A stretch of 64,000 nt of DNA from a virus (IMGVR_UViG_3300031555_001441:80270-144269); one strand, 5' to 3'. Counted from the first letter of the stretch, positions 5,769 to 36,540 are shown. The notes: generated by a model not told the origin, from the sequence alone. Numbers and translations are program-made.

Positions 5769-7241
5769 TCATATTACTCTATTGAGTGCTTTATCATACG
5801 ACCAAGGCTGTATTTGTTCAAATGCATGTGCAATAGCAAACACATCTTCATCTTGATACTGCTTTCCGATGATCTGCATCCCTACCGGAAGCCCATCGTT
5901 TGTCATACCTGCCGGAACAGATGCAGCTGGATATCCGACGAAGTTGACCAGGGGTGTTTCGGCAAATGCAATGAATCCTATATTTGGATCAATTGCAACT
6001 CCGTCTACTTCCTTTACACATCCGTTGTCTTCATTGCGAAGCGGCGGACATATTGATGTCGGAGAGACGATTGCGTAATATCCTTGATCAAATACATCTT
6101 CAAAGTTGTCAAGAATATCTGTCCGAATCTCATTGAACGTGCGCATGCTGTGAATATCAGTATCATATGCGATTTTATTGAATTTTATAAACTCTTCTGG
6201 TAGCTCATCTCTGTGATCCTTAACCAGATCGAGTCCTTGACCTCTCCATAACTCTAAGTCGAGAGCGGTATCAAGCGATATTGACCATGCCCAGCAATAC
6301 ATTATACTGTATGCGGGAAACTTGAAGTTGAAATTGACGAAGTCTACGTGTGCTCCAGCTTCTTCAAGTCGTTTAGCTGCATTGAATACTATTTCACGAA
6401 CTTCACTATCCGTTGAGAAAAGATTGAAGTCATATGTAAATGCGATCTTCTTTCCCTTGATCGGCTTCTTCATCAACTCTAAGAAATCCTTATTGTTGTT
6501 GATCGGAAGACTGATCGGATCTCTCGGATTGTATCTCGCCATTCCGTTGAGCATCTGCGCGCTATCTTCAACTGTTTTTGTAAGTGCACCATTGAAACAA
6601 TATGGATGTGTAGCTGACCAACCATCTGGCCTACAGTAACTTGGAATAGTTCCCAGCGATGCTTTGAAGCCGAAAAGATTGCACCAGCCTGCGGGAATTC
6701 GTATAGATCCACCTGCATCTCCACCTTCCCCAAGAAGAATGAGACCGTCTGCAACAGCTGCTGCGGTACCGCCAGAAGATCCACCTGACGTTCTTCCGGT
6801 ATCAAATGGATTCTTAGTAGCACCATACATCTTGTTGATGCAAGCTCCACTGAATCCAAATGCCGGCGCATTTGTTTTTCCTACCGCTATAGCACCAAAT
6901 TCTTTTGCAGCGGTGTAAAACATAGAATCTGCATCGTCAACTGCAACGAGTGATTTTACGCCGCCGTGAGAATTTGTCCACCCCTTCTTAGATGGTAAGA
7001 AATCTTTAAGGGCAACAGGAACTCCAGCAAAAGGTCCACAGTATTCTCCTGACTGAATACGCTTTTCCAGCTGACGTGCTTCCTCCATTGCATCCTCAAT
7101 CTTTGTGTAGGTAAATGCATTGATTGACGGATTTCTAGCTTGTATGCGTTCTGCAAAGTAGTTGATTACTTCCGTAGGTGAAACTTGTTTAGTGTTAACA
7201 AGCTCACCTAACTGTACTCCGGATAATCTTTCCAGCTCCAT
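5769..7241 (-). CDS. amidase-signature family protein (GatA-like fold)
   Basis: GVPVALKD, GKTN, SGGSSGG, GDAGGSIRIPAGWC and GLPVGMQ motifs. Confidence 0.9.
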   Translation of the reverse strand: MELERLSGVQLGELVNTKQVSPTEVINYFAERIQARNPSINAFTYTKIEDAMEEARQLEKRIQSGEYCGPFAGVPVALKDFLPSKKGWTNSHGGVKSLVAVDDADSMFYTAAKEFGAIAVGKTNAPAFGFSGACINKMYGATKNPFDTGRTSGGSSGGTAAAVADGLILLGEGGDAGGSIRIPAGWCNLFGFKASLGTIPSYCRPDGWSATHPYCFNGALTKTVEDSAQMLNGMARYNPRDPISLPINNNKDFLELMKKPIKGKKIAFTYDFNLFSTDSEVREIVFNAAKRLEEAGAHVDFVNFNFKFPAYSIMYCWAWSISLDTALDLELWRGQGLDLVKDHRDELPEEFIKFNKIAYDTDIHSMRTFNEIRTDILDNFEDVFDQGYYAIVSPTSICPPLRNEDNGCVKEVDGVAIDPNIGFIAFAETPLVNFVGYPAASVPAGMTNDGLPVGMQIIGKQYQDEDVFAIAHAFEQIQPWSYDKALNRVI

Positions 7242-29793: not shown

Positions 29794-29834
29794 AAAAAAT
29801 AGATCGGCTGTTATGGGAGTTGGAGCCGATCTAT
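29794..29834 (-). terminator. intrinsic terminator closing the ncRNA island
   Basis: ATAGATCGGCT..AGCCGATCTAT stem followed by a T tract on the minus strand. Confidence 0.75.
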
Positions 29835-29838
29835 CTAT

Positions 29839-30034
29839 GATGCCCTCGAGAATCTTTTCATCCGGGCCAGATGAATTCCAAAATAATTAAAGAAGTTATG
29901 CAGAGATTCTCGTGCTGCTGTGGAAATTGTAGGTGCCGTCCTACTGCGTGCTTCTCAAGATGCTTTGACTCAGAAGCCGTGAGGTATTTAAAGGAGACCA
30001 CAAAGAACACACTTTTTCGGTCTTAGGGAGCATC
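29839..30034 (-). ncRNA. putative structured ncRNA, ~195 nt
   Basis: Closing stem GATGC(TC)CCT/AGGGCATC with internal hairpins; no ORF. Confidence 0.4.
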
Positions 30035-30095
30035 TTGTGCCCTGACGTATGGAAAACCACGCGTATTCAAAATGAGTGGACAACGACGTTGTTGA

Positions 30096-30168
30096 TCTGA
30101 GTGAAGGGATTTGAACCCCCGACCTGATGGTCCCAAACCACCCGCTCTACCAACTGAGCTACACCCAG
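30096..30168 (-). tRNA. tRNA-Pro(UGG)
   Basis: Complete cloverleaf, loop TT-TGG-GA, T loop TTCAAAT; CCA not encoded. Confidence 0.92.
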
Positions 30169-30196
30169 ATACTGGGAAGGATTATTCTTCCCATTC

Positions 30197-30269
30197 TGGA
30201 AGGAACGGTAGGAGTCGAACCTACTTAAGTCAGTAGCGCTACTTCTGACTCTTGTCCGAAATCATCCCC
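30197..30269 (-). ncRNA. aberrant tRNA-like RNA
   Basis: Acceptor GGGGATG/CGTTCCT plus CCA; T arm GTAGG-TTCGACT-CCTAC; no proper D arm; 11-nt anticodon loop. Confidence 0.65.
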
Positions 30270-30286
30270 ATATGAATGTTGGCATC

Positions 30287-30802
30287 TTATTTTGCATACA
30301 GCGCATTGTTGACAATAGTGTATCCATGTTTATATAACGATTCATCGCTATTGATTGTATCTCCTGTAAGGAGTTCATCGAGCAGCTCCCGAATCAATCT
30401 GACTTCATTCTTGATGATTATGTCAGGAGCGTCAAGAACAATGAGTTTTGATAATCTTATATTTCTGTTATATATGTTTGCGAGCAGCCGAGCTACATAT
30501 GCAAATGAAATCATATCGTCATCATATATTCGGAGGACATCGTCTACGGGAATTTCATTGATACATACATCAGAGTAGTTATGCTCTTTTCTGAATTCGG
30601 CTACTTTCCGGTCAGCAAGCTCTCTGAAATCTTCATCGTGAGAAAAATATTCAAACACTGTATACTCCAGCTTTTCATCAGGCGTAAGCATTTTGTAATC
30701 AGTTTGTGTAAGCAGCATCTCAGCACAGTCTCTTTCGGTCATGTCCATATCAGATAGTGCGGACAGCGGAATAATCGATACAGGAAATTTGATGTTTTTC
30801 AT
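30287..30802 (-). CDS. hypothetical protein inserted in the RNA island
   Basis: 171-aa ORF with AGGAG RBS. Confidence 0.65.
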   Translation of the reverse strand: MKNIKFPVSIIPLSALSDMDMTERDCAEMLLTQTDYKMLTPDEKLEYTVFEYFSHDEDFRELADRKVAEFRKEHNYSDVCINEIPVDDVLRIYDDDMISFAYVARLLANIYNRNIRLSKLIVLDAPDIIIKNEVRLIRELLDELLTGDTINSDESLYKHGYTIVNNALYAK

Positions 30803-30839
30803 TATTTGATACTATCTCCTTATTACTATGAATATGCAG

Positions 30840-30911
30840 AGCTGGTGAATGGAGTCGAACCATCAATCCGTGCATTACAAGTGCACTGCTCTACCATTGA
30901 GCCACACCAGC
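30840..30911 (-). tRNA. tRNA-Thr(UGU)
   Basis: Cloverleaf; GTGCA-CT-TGT-AA-TGCAC. Confidence 0.92.
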
Positions 30912-30919
30912 AAATTAAA

Positions 30920-31059
30920 TTGAACCTAAATGACGAATGCGGTTATTCCAGCCTCAACACACGACTATTGTGCGCACTCACGGTGTACTATAGCGGTTTC
31001 TGTGGAGTCTGCTTGCAATCAGACGTTATCCACCATTTGCTCACTTCATTTAGATTCAA
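30920..31059 (-). ncRNA. family A ~140-nt RNA, copy 1
   Basis: 14-bp closing stem with a G-U pair on the minus strand; core shared with 33004-33138. Confidence 0.6.
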
Positions 31060-31390
31060 AGTGTAAGGACTAGCGAATCACCTTACTGTACCTATCTCCG
31101 CTTTCAAGGCTTTCGATTGCGCTCTATTAGGTAGAATTACACAACACTTTTAATTCAGATTCCTGACTTGACTCAGCATGAGTATCTGAACACCTAATAG
31201 AGAAATCAATTTAATAAAAGTTACCGTCACTTTCGCTCGGATTGATTACCGCGTTTCCTGCCTCATGGCAGTCACTCTTGTTCTGTCTTTGCAGTTGAGT
31301 TACGTCTCCCTATCATGATTCCGTTTGATCTGTCGGAGCAGCACGGAGATCGGTTAGCCTTGCTATTATTTCAAGCCAACAGTAACTTTT
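31060..31390 (-). ncRNA. ~330-nt structured RNA sharing motifs with the 1150-nt RNA
   Basis: Closed domains at 31216-31390 and 31122-31202; shared 16-mer and CGAAAGCC..CGGAGA..GGTAC. Confidence 0.55.
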
Positions 31391-31467
<77 letters not shown>

Positions 31468-31585
31468 ATGAATTTGAAAGTTCAGTCCGCCTTTCAGCCA
31501 TTCCAGTAAGGGCGATACACAGCTTACAAGTCTCTGGCATCTGATACCTACGAGAGGTAACCATAACACGCGTTGTTATGTATTA

Positions 31586-31700
31586 TAGGCTGTTCTACAC
31601 ACATTTAACTACTTCTGTCCAGTTCGTCTACTAACCCAAGCGTCCTATCCAGCAACGCTCCCGATATTCGGACGGGCGTTCATCCGCATCGTAGCACCTA
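31586..31700 (-). ncRNA. family B ~115-nt RNA, copy 1
   Basis: AGGTGCTACGA...TAAATG...GAACAGCCT handles. Confidence 0.55.
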
Positions 31701-31720
31701 CGTATTATATAACGATTCTA

Positions 31721-32101
31721 TTATTTAACTATGTCCTTGCTCAACAGATGAAAACATAAGAATTCGTAATTTTTAATCAAATGTGTATTTGTCGACTCAT
31801 CATACTCTATATAACCAGTACCGTAAGGTGTTAAATAATAATCAGACATCATAATATCTGCGATTGATTGCAAACTAGGTGATAGGACTGTCTCTGCAGA
31901 CTTATTGTCATCGTTAAGATCCGTAACAAACCCTAACCACTCACCTTCTCTACTGAATATATGTGTAGGATGCTCTTCAGATATCTGAGAAGCTAGAGAT
32001 TTATAGAAATCTTTCGGATATGTCCAACCTGATCTACGTTCGGTTTCAGTTGAGTTTAATGGCATCAATTGAAACGTGCATTTTACTTTCTCAGTACTCA
32101 T
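31721..32101 (-). CDS. hypothetical protein
   Basis: 126-aa ORF with GAGG RBS. Confidence 0.6.
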   Translation of the reverse strand: MSTEKVKCTFQLMPLNSTETERRSGWTYPKDFYKSLASQISEEHPTHIFSREGEWLGFVTDLNDDNKSAETVLSPSLQSIADIMMSDYYLTPYGTGYIEYDESTNTHLIKNYEFLCFHLLSKDIVK

Positions 32102-32111
32102 GTTGTACCTC

Positions 32112-32474
32112 TTACTTATCTAAATGACACTTATAATGTTCACTGTGATCATATATGAGTGTTGGATCATCCCTTAAGCCGAATTCTGTTTTAATTCGAG
32201 GAATAAAGTTCTCAGAAATGTTCGGGTTCATATAGATAACAGCTCTGCCCTTGTTGTCGATATCAACACGGCCTCTTGGATAGTATTTGAAATTGTGTTT
32301 GCAGCCTTTCGGCTTGACGTAGGGCCACAGTCTTTCGTGATTGTATGTGTTGCCGGACTTTGCGATTCCCTCGGTGTAATCATCTTCTACAAACGGGAAC
32401 GCTAACAGCTCGTCATCTACTATCCAGAACACGCCGCGTCTCGTTTCTTTTGCAGCTGTTATCAATCTTTTCAT
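32112..32474 (-). CDS. hypothetical protein with MKRLITAA tag
   Basis: GVFW...H...W...YYPRGRV...HYKC pattern seen in phage proteins. Confidence 0.65.
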   Translation of the reverse strand: MKRLITAAKETRRGVFWIVDDELLAFPFVEDDYTEGIAKSGNTYNHERLWPYVKPKGCKHNFKYYPRGRVDIDNKGRAVIYMNPNISENFIPRIKTEFGLRDDPTLIYDHSEHYKCHLDK

Positions 32475-32506
32475 AAGTTACGTCTTTCTCAATTTAAACA
32501 CAATCA

Positions 32507-32738
32507 AATCATCTCAAGGCTACCACTCCGCATCTACTCGCAAGCTCTAAATAAGATACTCACTTGCTCCTAGCTCGAAAGCTTTTCCTACCTCCTCGAA
32601 GTTGGGCTGATATTTCGCCTACAGACCAGTTCTCTTAAGAGTTTACAACCGTGTCTCCCTTCGGTGAGCTCTTTCTTTCTCATCAATTCGGACTCTCGAT
32701 CTCTGACCTTCGCTTACTATATAAACCTCGAGATGATT
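32507..32738 (-). ncRNA. putative structured ncRNA, ~230 nt
   Basis: 13-bp closing stem AAUCAUCUCGAGG/CCUUGAGAUGAUU (G-U on the minus strand). Confidence 0.5.
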
Positions 32739-32924
32739 AACCACGGAACTTTTCACGCCTGCTCCTGCATCGTAGGTAGCATCCGTTTCAATTCTATAAA
32801 CCCCAGCGTAGGGTGGCAATATATTTTGACATGCCGTACTCGTGCTACGCACATACCAGTGAATTTACGGTATATATCATTTCAACCGAAGGCTTCACCC
32901 TGCTAACTTAATGGGACTAATCCC

Positions 32925-32998
32925 TGGAGCAGATACGGAGAATCGAACTCCGACGATGAGATTGGAAATCTCAGGTTCTACCATTAAACTACATCTGC
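32925..32998 (-). tRNA. tRNA-Gly(UCC)
   Basis: Cloverleaf; TGAGA-TT-TCC-AA-TCTCA; CCA encoded. Confidence 0.93.
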
Positions 32999-33003
32999 AT
33001 ATT

Positions 33004-33138
33004 GAATCTGAAGAAAGAATATAAGTTATTCCTAATCAACACAACGACTATTAAAACGCACGTGCTCACGATGTATTATATAGGTTTCTCAAAGCCACTC
33101 TGCAGAGTGATATTTTTCGTCTCTCAATCTTCAGATTT
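33004..33138 (-). ncRNA. family A ~135-nt RNA, copy 2
   Basis: Closing stem AATCTGAAGA/TCTTCAGATT; core shared with 30920-31059. Confidence 0.6.
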
Positions 33139-33266
33139 TGGTGCACTCTACAAGATTCGAACTTGTCTAAACTGTCTGTAGCTTCTTCTACATATCAGCT
33201 CTTAGTTTCAGGCATCAAGAAGTATTGCCTTAGACCTTAGTGTTCTTCCAAATGAACTAAGAGTGC
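33139..33266 (-). ncRNA. 128-nt tRNA-like RNA with an enlarged anticodon/variable region
   Basis: Perfect acceptor GCACTCT/AGAGTGC-A-CCA; D arm GTTC/GAAC; T arm ACAAG-TTCGAAT-CTTGT; ~70-nt two-hairpin centre. Confidence 0.7.
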
Positions 33267-33351
33267 AGAATTGAGCCTCAGGGCGTCCCCATGTTGGCTC
33301 AGTGACAGTTGTGGTGTTCAGTCACTTCGAGTCAGTAGACTGTCAACTACT

Positions 33352-33512
33352 TAGCACAACTTTTAAGGATGAAGTTTGTGCCTTATCATAACCGCCCGTG
33401 TCGTAGGTCGCCCGCCACCTTTTTTGAACATGAGGCATGGAAGCTTCCTCAGCTAACAATGAGAGTCTAACTCATGTCTTCACCCCGAAGGGTCGCACTC
33501 CACGTTGTGCTA
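33352..33512 (-). ncRNA. putative structured ncRNA, ~160 nt
   Basis: 9-bp closing stem TAGCACAAC/GTTGTGCTA; CCC-TTCG-GGG tetraloop hairpin. Confidence 0.45.
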
Positions 33513-33528
33513 TGTTAGCATATTAAGT

Positions 33529-33668
33529 TGATGCAGGTAAGGATTTCCACCTTACATGAGCAAGTCTAAGTACACGATTTGACATTTTGTGGAATTACAC
33601 CTCTACGGGTACCGCAATCTTACTATCTCTACTCTTGTTCAAGCGTCTACGTATTCCGCCACTGCATC
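33529..33668 (-). ncRNA. 140-nt tRNA-Leu-like RNA with a long extended anticodon arm
   Basis: Acceptor GATGCAG/CTGCATC-A; Leu-type D arm GCGGAAT..GTAGACGC; atypical T loop TGGAAAT. Confidence 0.6.
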
Positions 33669-33774
33669 TGAGAGCCTAGACCTATATCACTCTCCGGTCC
33701 TCTGCAAGCTCTTTGAGGACTTTATCCGTTTCTGCGCGCATCCGACGAATACACTCGGACATTTCTAAATTGAA

Positions 33775-33895
33775 TTGTAGGCTGTTCATCAAACTCCATT
33801 TAACATGTACTGCTGCTCTATCCGATTTACGCTCAGGAACCTCCTGCATCTCGTCAAATACCGCTTACGATTCGGAAGCTTCGTAGCACCTACAA
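33775..33895 (-). ncRNA. family B ~120-nt RNA, copy 2
   Basis: TTGTAGG/CCTACAA stem with the same handles. Confidence 0.6.
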
Positions 33896-34059
33896 CTCTT
33901 GTTGTTTCTTCCCTGTGTCGTAGAGAACACACGCCTTTCACTGTAGTAGAAAAAGTAATTACTGCACGCTCGATTCTACCGTACTGACATAACGACCAAA
34001 AATGTTATGGAAATTTATTGGATCTCAGTAACTTGGAACGTCATTACCGAGAAGCGGTC

Positions 34060-34134
34060 TGGCTGAGGTAGCTGGATTTGAACCAGCGATGCAGGAGTCA
34101 AAGTCCTGTGTCTTGACCACTTGACTATACCCCA
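34060..34134 (-). tRNA. tRNA-Gln(UUG)
   Basis: Cloverleaf; CAGGA-CT-TTG-AC-TCCTG; CCA encoded. Confidence 0.93.
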
Positions 34135-34153
34135 ATATTTTGCAAGATTATAA

Positions 34154-34231
34154 TGGTTGTGAAGGTTGGACTTGAACCAACTTAATAACGTGCCTACATG
34201 TTATCGGCGTTGTGATTTCAATCACTTCAAG
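34154..34231 (-). ncRNA. aberrant tRNA-like RNA
   Basis: T arm GTTGG-TTCAAGT-CCAAC and CCA end; partial acceptor; non-standard D and anticodon arms. Confidence 0.55.
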
Positions 34232-34344
34232 AAGCAGTTTCTTACCTTACTCGAGATATTCTCAGTCTTACTTCTAACGTTGTCAGCGGAACATGCACCC
34301 GCCCGACTCGACCCTTCGCCTTCTTCACTATATCTTTTTAAACT

Positions 34345-34413
34345 AGGATTGTGTGAGAGTCGAACTCACTCCTGCAGTTTCTGAGGCTGCTGTGCGCCGT
34401 ACACCATCGCTCC
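34345..34413 (-). pseudogene. degenerate tRNA (loop CT-CAG-AA)
   Basis: T arm GTGAG-TTCGACT-CTCAC intact; acceptor stem has 3 mismatches; no CCA. Confidence 0.55.
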
Positions 34414-34484
34414 ATATAGATTGTACTTTCTTACTTACGTAGAAGAAACTTTTAAGAAGACGGATACATACTAAAAGCTTAATA

Positions 34485-35634
34485 TGGAGTTGGCAGTCTT
34501 TCCCACTGACTGCCTGAGACTCTATCTCTCATCACAGTCCTCTGTCACATTACTGTGCTCTTCGGCTTTTACCTCCACTAACGGAGGCGAGAGTCTCCCT
34601 GACATCCTTAGTACTTGCACAATCTGGCTTCACTTAATAGGAACATCGCTACGTTTCAGGTATAAGTACCAACAGCTTCGCCTCCCTCCGCAGGGACTTC
34701 CTCTGGACTCAGACCAGACTTTCCACCATTGAATACATACGATGCTATTCCATGTCGCATCCTATTTAAGTATATCGGAGTTTCACCGACACCTTACGAG
34801 AATCCGAACCCACCAATTCTCTGAGTACTACTGGCTCGCTTTAGTAATGCGATGCCTGACTGTTCCGAAGTTCGTCCGCAACTGTCTGAGTTTAACGGGC
34901 TATTTCTCCTTACTGAATCCTGAGACTCGGATTGATTACCGAGGAGAGATTCAACGGCTCTTTTTGTGCCGAAGTCTCTATTAACCTTCGGCTAAATTCC
35001 TCTCTTCGAAAATCTCTGCGCAGATAAGAGGAATACTTTAGGATGTAGTGGCAACCTCACTTTACTATAATCCACTACGTTACTCGAAGTACCTCTCCGA
35101 ATTTTTCGGCTTTCGCTAATCCAGTCTTACAACCTCGTACCTATTTACGGAGATACGCTGACCGAAGGTTTTAGTTAGAATAAGTGTAGCACCAACCTCA
35201 TTTGTGAAACTTGCTACCTACGGAGATACTTTTGCGCATTTCACGCATCCATCACCGTTCTTAGATCACTATCGTGTCTAAAGGTTGTTGATCTTAACTG
35301 GTACCTGAACCCACGAGTACCTTGGCGTTGTTGCACGCGTGTCCATCATTCAAGATATAACGGGCGACGTCCTTCCCGATCACGTATCATCGCTTTGATC
35401 AGAAGCGACTTCGAGATCAGCACCACTATTCATCTGAGGTAGATTTAATTCATCAACCACTTATCTGACTCTACGACCTTGTACTTCGGTGGTCATGCAC
35501 CTTCAGATCTCACTTTATTTCGAGCCTGTGAGCAGGACTTGGTGTGGAGAGCCTTTCTGTAGATACTTTCATGTGACTTTTTCACCTTTAGAGCGTACTC
35601 GCGAATACGACATCTTCAAGCTTCTCTAACTCCA
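34485..35634 (-). ncRNA. 1150-nt large structured ncRNA, GOLLD/ROOL-like candidate
   Basis: Begins 1 nt after the tRNA-Leu CCA; TGGAGTT/AACTCCA terminal stem; many hairpins; no credible minus-strand ORF. Confidence 0.6.
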
Positions 35635-35635
35635 C

Positions 35636-35719
35636 TGGTGCACCTGGAGAGACTTGAACTCTCACCCATCTTGGACTGGACCCTAAAACCAGCGCGTCTG
35701 CCATTTCCGCCACAGATGC
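35636..35719 (-). tRNA. tRNA-Leu(UAG)
   Basis: Class II cloverleaf; TT-TAG-GG loop; CCA encoded. Confidence 0.9.
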
Positions 35720-35725
35720 ATGTAT

Positions 35726-35836
35726 TATATCAGGCTGTTCATCCCACTCCATTTACCACTGCTGCTGCGTCCATTTACTCCGTTCCAGAAAGCTATTAAG
35801 GCGATCTGCGGTATAGGCTTCGTGGCACCTGATATA
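35726..35836 (-). ncRNA. family B ~110-nt RNA, copy 3
   Basis: TATATCAGG/CCTGATATA stem with the same handles. Confidence 0.6.
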
Positions 35837-35845
35837 TTTGATTTT

Positions 35846-35913
35846 TACAAGTATATTATAAGCCCTACTGATTATGTCAGTATTATATATTTATTAAATT
35901 TTTATAAATTTTA
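35846..35913 (-). promoter_or_regulatory. 68-bp class C repeat, copy 2, at the head of the RNA island
   Basis: Near-identical to 5655-5722. Confidence 0.75.
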
Positions 35914-36159
35914 GAGATAAATACTAATAAAATCTGTATCTTTCTCAATTATTAAAGGTCCAACGCAGATCTGATTGATGTCAATTGATTCTCAAATTCT
36001 TTCTGATACTTATCTCGTAAACAATTAAGTTCAGAAATGTACTGTGATCTTAATTCTTTGAATATGTCCATGGAATGTTTAAGTTCAACTGCTTTTTGAA
36101 TCACTTCCGAATCGCATCCGATGATCTTGTATTCTGCCACTTGAGTCTGTCTCCTACTG

Positions 36160-36540
36160 TTAATATCTTTGAATCAGTTCAAATCCGTGTTTATTGCAGA
36201 CATCTTCGACTGCTGCTTTCTGACATAACGCAATCGTTCTGAGATCTGAAGCTACTACGATTCCTTTAGCATCTAGTAATATATAACGATCTCGAGTGCT
36301 ATTGTACAGCACGATATACTTAGAAATCAAAGTAGAATTTCTGTAAGTCCGCATTGAAAAGAGACCTTTTTCAATTTTACTCTGGTCTGCCGGATCAAAA
36401 TCAAGTACTGGAAATTTCTGATGTACTAAGATGCACTTTCCTTGTGCCGGAACTTCTTTCTGTAGATTTACAGAAGAGCCCATTAGTAACATGTATCGAT
36501 CAGATCCTGTATCTTTTGCAAGTACTCTTTCGGGTGTCAT
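36160..36540 (-). CDS. hypothetical protein
   Basis: 126-aa ORF with GGAG RBS. Confidence 0.6.
   Translation of the reverse strand: MTPERVLAKDTGSDRYMLLMGSSVNLQKEVPAQGKCILVHQKFPVLDFDPADQSKIEKGLFSMRTYRNSTLISKYIVLYNSTRDRYILLDAKGIVVASDLRTIALCQKAAVEDVCNKHGFELIQRY

Follow-up and report, generated by a model that had tools for sequence, protein, structure and literature searches.

The question raised by the region between positions 31585 and 35836 of a 64,000-nucleotide (nt) stretch of phage DNA (IMGVR_UViG_3300031555_001441:80270-144269, hereafter the window) is what is represented by three short elements that share constant ends and enclose variable interiors. An earlier interpretation made from the sequence alone (the sequence-only reading) described them as discrete RNAs whose outer stems differ in sequence yet stay paired, and proposed that they present guide or antisense segments, or act as GGA-rich sponges for CsrA-type proteins. 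The description is borne out, and the proposed functions find no support. On the evidence of sequence comparison and covariation, the three elements can be assigned to a large, previously uncatalogued structured RNA family of gut and rumen phages, the members of which are packed among tRNA genes.

The Three Elements and Their Relatives

All three elements are on the minus strand, at the positions where the sequence-only reading had placed them: 35836-35726 (copy 3), 33898-33772 (copy 2), and 31701-31585 (copy 1). The 11-mer handle and the 9-mer handle that define them occur three times each in the window, always paired at the three elements, and handle matches with one or two mismatches elsewhere in the window are at the chance level. 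The combined handle pattern was found three times in the whole 144 kb phage genome (an IMG/VR virus record estimated to be 96% complete), compared with none in a reversed-pattern control. Furthermore, a covariance model, R1, was built from 100 family members. The model recovered the three copies, which are its only matches in the window and in the whole genome, with scores of 78.3 bits for copy 3 (35834-35728), 70.9 bits for copy 2 (33895-33775), and 42.0 bits for copy 1 (31703-31585). The exact handle counts, the reversed control, and the R1 model thus confirm three discrete elements.

The elements have many relatives. When viral contigs were scanned for the exact pattern, 41 loci were obtained, 37 of which proved on inspection to be alike well beyond the pattern; the other four (L016, L017, L033, and L039) were chance matches and were left out. 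When the 3' block alone was used as the query, at least 117 viral loci were found, together with 32 contigs of gut and rumen metagenome-assembled genomes (MAGs), which are mostly labelled Clostridia and in some cases Bacilli or Bacteroidales. The matches listed contain 123 distinct instances of 69-201 nt from about 170 phage and gut-MAG loci, the minimal member being 69 nt long (L085:2888-2956), and the R1 model gave 112 hits in 98 loci.

BLAST searches of three members against the GenBank phages (INPHARED) returned either nothing or chance-level matches to the AT-rich interiors, and no cultured phage with the motif was found in this way. Full-text searches of the literature with core strings and motif descriptions gave nothing relevant, although an unnamed entry in a candidate-RNA catalogue could still cover the family; the first 200 of 408 supplementary files of such catalogues contained no match.

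Conserved Core and Covariation

The core of the RNA is formed by two helices, P1 and P2, together with an invariant 5' pentamer and a 3' junction, and about 30 of its columns are at least 97% conserved. P1 is free in sequence and in length (5-14 pairs) and always ends with the pairs G-C, G-C, and U-G. Its 5' strand runs directly into the 5-bp P2, the 3' partner bases of which are located about 25-160 nt downstream. Beyond P2 there is a purine-rich internal loop conserved on both strands, followed by a variable domain containing one helix or several. P2 is linked to P1 on the 3' strand by a junction of about 20 nt, which is apparently unpaired and is 97-100% conserved except at three positions.

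Single-sequence folding of the elements was uninformative (z-scores of 0.01 to -1.2), so the structure rests on covariation. In the 100-sequence alignment, 96.9% of the P1/P2 cells are paired, 242 cells are changed on both sides compared with 71 in shuffles, and pairing falls to 12-57% when the partner is slid by 1-3 columns. At the middle pair of P2, 52 sequences have U-A, 31 have C-G, and 5 have A-U. The top mutual-information pairs are those of the P1 and P2 columns, and one further pair recovered in this way lengthens P2 beyond a bulged base. The P1 signal is partly circular, because the selection of instances demanded two P1 pairs beyond the invariant ones; P2 was not used in the selection. 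In the three copies, the outer stems differ in sequence and remain paired, as the sequence-only reading had stated.

The interior forms a peripheral domain, the helices of which show covariation within subfamilies, and the domain length extends over a seven-fold range, from 23 to about 160 nt. Two subtypes are distinguished by the start of the junction, one with a double U, which has an interior UUUGA loop motif in 29 of 52 cases (5.3 expected), and one with a single U, which does not have it. In the double-U subtype the loop motif could pair with the first five junction bases to give a candidate pseudoknot of 4-5 bp, but this pairing has no covariation and is absent from the single-U subtype. 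Another pairing, between the segment 3' of the P2 5' strand and the middle of the junction, was proposed by RNAalifold for one subfamily and is unsupported family-wide. A small ORF (open reading frame) starting at the junction AUG was rejected because this codon is AUG in only 65% of the members, and DNA-level readings (a promoter or an inverted-repeat mobile element) were rejected because the outer stems covary, rather than being conserved, and because the element is strictly co-oriented with tRNAs.

The three copies contain P1, P2, the 5' pentamer, and the 3' junction of the R1 model, copy 1 only with a 3-nt deletion in the junction. Copy 3 (35726-35836, minus strand), of the single-U subtype, is the best family member (R1 E value of 5.6e-17); its P1 pairs 35836-35827 with 35735-35726, the P2 5' strand is 35826-35822, the interior 35821-35762, and the junction 35755-35736, and both P1 and P2 form in a constrained fold. 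Copy 2 (33772-33898, minus strand) belongs to the double-U subtype and has the interior UUUGA loop motif, with P1 at 33898-33888 and 33782-33772, the P2 5' strand at 33887-33883, the interior at 33882-33809, and the junction at 33802-33783; it has a 3-nt insertion in the P2 3' strand, and its interior is similar to that of the L036 member. Copy 1 (31585-31701, minus strand) is divergent: P1 is formed by 31701-31696 and 31590-31585, the P2 5' strand is 31695-31691, the interior is 31690-31614, and the junction (31607-31591) is 3 nt short, is without the invariant GGA, and has further substitutions in the R1 alignment. The P2 sequence is CUAC/GUAG in both copy 1 and copy 2, whereas copy 3 has CCAC/GUGG. 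Copies 2 and 3 look intact and copy 1 is probably degenerate and inactive. The extra strings that the sequence-only reading had listed as common to copies 2 and 3 are present; P2, which adjoins the 5' handle, and the junction deletion of copy 1 had both been missed.

Comparison with Known RNA Classes

No Rfam 15 family matched, even at permissive thresholds: there was no match to the three copies at the gathering score or, over 29800-36200, at E up to 5, and none at E up to 10 when copy 2 alone and the 69-nt minimal member were used. In 14 related loci, no Rfam 15 match overlapped the motif. The copies are called as tRNAs by neither ARAGORN nor RF00005. Mimicry of tRNA was considered and rejected, as a T-arm-like hairpin with a 7-nt loop occurs in only six of the 35 motif-bearing interiors and P1 is not fixed at 7 bp. 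The idea of a double T-loop was likewise abandoned, the supposed likeness of the interior motif to the T-loops of the L1 stalk failing on E. coli 23S rRNA; the junction pentamer fits only a loose, generic T-loop pattern. For a T-box there is no Rfam match and no terminator after P1, and the downstream units are tRNAs or unrelated genes. For a hammerhead, the conserved CUGANGA/GAAA core is absent, the positions before the junction GA vary freely (columns 191-192), P1 and P2 stack without a three-way junction, and again no Rfam match was obtained.

Several known systems resemble the family in part. YrlA RNAs also have ends that pair into a conserved stem module around a variable interior, and the T-arm-like hairpin of six members recalls them; however, that hairpin is found in only the six interiors mentioned above, the YrlA model (RF02553) gives only a 21-bit match over the tRNA-Pro region and none on the copies, and neither a Ro/TROVE gene nor an RtcB gene was found in the 144 kb phage genome. 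ROOL, GOLLD, and RAGATH are orphan phage RNAs with strong covariation, often located beside tRNAs, and ROOL and RAGATH-33 occur in the arrays of L010 and L018, respectively. Unlike ROOL and GOLLD, the present family is much smaller, has another fold, and matches no Rfam model. The tRNA cluster of the coliphage T4 encodes species 1 and 2 (rnaC/rnaD), non-tRNA small RNAs that are freed by the tRNA-processing machinery. Their likeness to the present RNAs is one of description only, i.e., small non-tRNA RNAs inside a phage tRNA cluster, and all members of the present family found here come from uncultivated phages of gut and rumen.

The pistol ribozyme (RF02679) is characterised by three stems and a pseudoknot, and by a 2-nt GU junction that faces a long one (PMC4604425). 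Like the present family it is small, phage-associated, and mainly from Firmicutes, and the two have in common a helix followed by a segment of the U-A-A-A-U type and peripheral helices that vary freely; the short, fixed G-U step of the present family, with a long, conserved junction on the other strand, may be a counterpart of the GU junction. However, the connectivities are equivalent only after circular permutation, the Rfam model does not match, and the 6-bp pseudoknot between hairpin loop and junction has as its counterpart only the 4-5-bp candidate of the double-U subtype. Pseudoknotted hammerheads share a connectivity like that of the permuted P1/P2 region (PMC11300833). Theta ribozymes, which are minimal HDV-like ribozymes, are short RNAs within tRNA clusters of uncultivated gut Caudoviricetes, some of which include suppressor tRNAs (PMC10879173), as do the loci of the present family with their nine CUA anticodons. 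In contrast, theta ribozymes follow directly 3' of tRNAs and cut themselves at the 5' end, whereas the present RNA is mostly immediately 5' of tRNAs and is without the HDV-like nested pseudoknot.

Genomic Context of the Family

The context was surveyed in 111 related loci, which amount to 1.0 Mb with 659 tRNA genes between them. Within a locus, the motif and the tRNAs share a strand without exception (713 versus 0). A tRNA starts within 15 nt downstream of the P1 end in 30 of 120 instances, mostly at 1-8 nt, and a tRNA ends within 15 nt upstream in nine; a tRNA is present upstream on the same strand in 70. Because 27% of the tRNA-tRNA gaps in these loci are also of 15 nt or less, the packing of the element is like that of a tRNA gene. 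No particular tRNA follows the motif, and tandem and interleaved arrangements are found in L025 and L066.

A smaller part of the family is placed differently. A strong sigma-70-type site is present within 90 nt upstream in 22 of 97 instances, compared with 4-10 of 97 in control windows, the clear cases being L053, L169, and L117. Where a locus has no tRNAs, the element is followed by genes unrelated to one another (NT5C, a resolvase, HTH proteins, and unknowns) and thus the family is not a cis-regulator of one gene class. Several instances start 4-8 nt past a stop codon. In four related phages, the element begins 5 nt after a gene for Tad8, an inhibitor of Thoeris, which places the element in anti-defence neighbourhoods as well. 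This gene (L015:5356-5637, minus strand, with homologues in L031, L009, and L172) encodes about 90 aa and matches the Pfam family Tad8 (type II Thoeris inhibitor) with an E value of 2.9e-22. Members of the family share tRNA arrays with RAGATH-33 (L018 7215-7340, 123.6 bits) and ROOL (L010 7641-8241, 309 bits). The neighbourhoods are accessory or anti-defence in character, with tRNA arrays, Tad8, ROOL, and RAGATH-33. Phage tRNA arrays in general are seen as modules for counter-defence and translation takeover, dotted with ROOL, GOLLD, RAGATH, and theta ribozymes.

Two observations concern the tRNAs themselves. Those with suppressor-type anticodons (nine CUA and one UCA) occur in L007, L018, L019, L025, L043, and five other related loci, which suggests stop-codon recoding in many of the motif-bearing phages. 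In L072, a tRNA-like sequence of about 66 nt, seen by eye, lies at about 7153-7218 (plus strand), just past the member at 7005-7146; it has acceptor, D, and T arms with only about 10 nt in place of the anticodon arm, and ARAGORN does not call it.

Possible Functions

The reading that we favour, tentatively, is that of a stable small RNA co-processed with tRNAs and acting in trans through its invariant junction. The elements would be co-transcribed with the tRNAs of the array. The 3' side of the RNA would be released when RNase P cuts at the 5' end of the tRNA that follows, and its 5' end would result either from 3' processing of the preceding unit or from a promoter close by. A stable small RNA of about 70-200 nt would then accumulate, whose junction and internal loop may together offer a surface to which a partner that is conserved in many hosts can bind, with the variable domain as a scaffold only. 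The first candidates for this partner would be components of tRNA handling, i.e., the tRNA itself, a tRNA-processing or -modifying factor, or a tRNA-directed defence nuclease. The core is invariant even though the phages are binned with MAGs of Clostridia, Bacilli, and Bacteroidales, which speaks for a universal partner or a self-contained chemistry.

Several points weigh against this proposal. The phage encodes neither Ro/TROVE nor RtcB. About one-fifth of the instances are directly after a promoter and several follow a stop codon by 4-8 nt, an arrangement that also suits a cis-acting leader or a 3' element. The tie to tRNA handling is one of genomic association only. Finally, a near-invariant unpaired junction between what would be coaxial helices is more typical of ribozymes or riboswitches than of protein-binding RNAs.

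The main alternative, which we regard as rather unlikely, is that the RNAs are small self-cleaving ribozymes, either of a new class or as a distant, circularly permuted variant. A cut at or near the G-U step would sever polycistronic phage transcripts or remove a 5' triphosphate leader. P1 and P2 flank this strictly conserved step opposite a long conserved junction, an arrangement that resembles, after circular permutation, the P3/P2 connectivity of pistol and that of the pseudoknotted hammerheads; the unpaired junction is extremely conserved, the length of the 5'-strand junction is fixed, and the peripheral helices are free to vary. Several copies can occur in one phage, the loop motif enriched in the double-U subtype could form a pseudoknot with the junction start, and the genomic setting is the same as that of RAGATH-33 and ROOL, which are ribozyme-associated, and of the theta ribozymes that flank tRNAs in gut phages (PMC10879173). 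However, single copies match no Rfam ribozyme model at E up to 10, the hammerhead core is missing, and neither the pistol pseudoknot nor its conserved bases can be recognised. Opposite the U of the G-U step there is an invariant G, with which this U may simply pair, and the candidate pseudoknot is weakened by its lack of covariation and its restriction to one subtype. Moreover, the element is directly 5' of a tRNA in 30 cases and directly 3' of one in nine, so a cut near its own 5' end would rarely mature a tRNA. Most of the phage-associated candidate motifs tested by Weinberg et al. in 2015 reportedly did not self-cleave, which also counts against a ribozyme.

The more specific form of this idea, which we rate lower and consider unlikely, is a nucleolytic ribozyme with pistol-like connectivity that arose by natural circular permutation, with a large variable insert, and would cleave the invariant G-U step and so cut tRNA-array and early transcripts. 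Less likely than such a permuted ribozyme is a trans-acting, tRNA-binding RNA with a T-loop-like junction pentamer.

Improbable, in our view, is a cis-acting leader or spacer of untranslated phage transcripts, working either by put-like processive antitermination, in which it would bind RNA polymerase and render it resistant to terminators and Rho, or as an exonuclease protection or processing guide. The sigma-70-type promoters located 15-25 nt upstream of the core in a subset of instances (the 22 of 97 above) agree with a leader, as does the position of the element ahead of long ORF-poor RNA islands such as window 29800-35900, and the invariance would be understandable if the target were universal, as RNA polymerase is. 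On the other hand, most instances are internal to an array (the 70 of 120 with an upstream tRNA on the same strand), several copies are possible within a few kb on one strand, and pure protection would not need about 30 invariant bases.

A riboswitch-type aptamer, in which P1 would close a ligand pocket formed by the junction, is very improbable: the closed P1, conserved junction, and variable periphery are aptamer-like in build, but there is no expression platform, with neither a terminator nor a sequestered ribosome-binding site after P1, the downstream units are tRNAs or unrelated genes, and there are several copies per array. Least credible of all is the protein-binding handle of the sequence-only reading, presenting a guide or antisense segment or sponging CsrA-type proteins, which would account for a constant core around a hypervariable interior and for the one invariant GGA in the unpaired junction (missing in copy 1), but which is unsupported, and for phage targets largely refuted, because the interiors are base-paired and covary over their seven-fold length range (one subtype having its own conserved loop motif), their longest complementarity to the phage's own genome is at the shuffled level (11-12 nt for the three interiors), and GGA is not enriched (1.66 per interior versus 1.70 in shuffles), there being moreover no adjacent effector gene.

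The RNA Island in the Window

The region 29800-35900 of the window is ORF-poor. Its tRNA genes, six confident and one weak, are all encoded on the minus strand, and genes for replication and repair, among them those for an NAD-dependent ligase and an SbcC-like protein, flank the region. The DNA datasets containing 29800-36000 are animal faeces metagenomes, and no RNA dataset is listed.

Copy 3 and its neighbour show the arrangement typical of the family, with the RNA packed directly 5' of a tRNA: tRNA-Leu(UAG) (35636-35719, minus strand), identified by ARAGORN and the Rfam tRNA model, starts 6 nt past the P1 3' strand of copy 3. Downstream of copy 1, the first tRNA is tRNA-Asn (31392-31467, minus strand), identified in the same two ways and 117 nt away; the intervening 31468-31584 (minus strand, about 117 nt) looks structured and RNA-like. 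In both copy 1 and copy 3, TATAATACAT comes after the P1 3' strand.

The sequence-only reading had described copies 1 and 3 as the first units after a promoter motif. Upstream of each there is indeed a promoter-like site that matches the sigma-70 consensus at 9 of 12 positions, at 35853-35880 (minus strand) for copy 3, where it is weak by itself, and at 31715-31744 (minus strand) for copy 1, just past the stop codon of the ORF at 31721-32101; however, the total of promoter-like matches in the region equals the shuffle expectation, which leaves the claim weakly supported. That reading had also seen no cognate protein, and none is evident, the neighbouring ORFs being without effector domains. 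Two small minus-strand ORFs inside the island, 31721-32101 (126 aa) and 32112-32474 (120 aa), match no Pfam or PHROG family.

Directly downstream of tRNA-Leu, about 1150 nt (34485-35634, minus strand) are ORF-free and contain many local hairpins with no Rfam match; the position is comparable to that of ROOL in L010 (7641-8241). Farther along, 34345-34413 (minus strand) matches the tRNA model with 29.6 bits, barely above the gathering score and with no ARAGORN call, and may be an aberrant or degenerate tRNA.

Significance

The ORF-poor region 29800-35900 is a dense island of RNA genes rather than junk, and its three elements belong to a real and widespread family of structured RNAs that is apparently undescribed and whose invariant core of about 20 nt points to a binding or catalytic role. 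R1 provides a covariance model that is currently missing from annotation pipelines. With a minimal form of 69 nt, hundreds of natural variants, and about 30 invariant bases, the family is a compact addition to the RNAs of phage tRNA arrays that should be tractable in the laboratory. Catalytic activity would make it a ribozyme class that is new or permuted, and binding to a host factor or to tRNA would make it a novel type of phage RNA effector travelling together with tRNAs.

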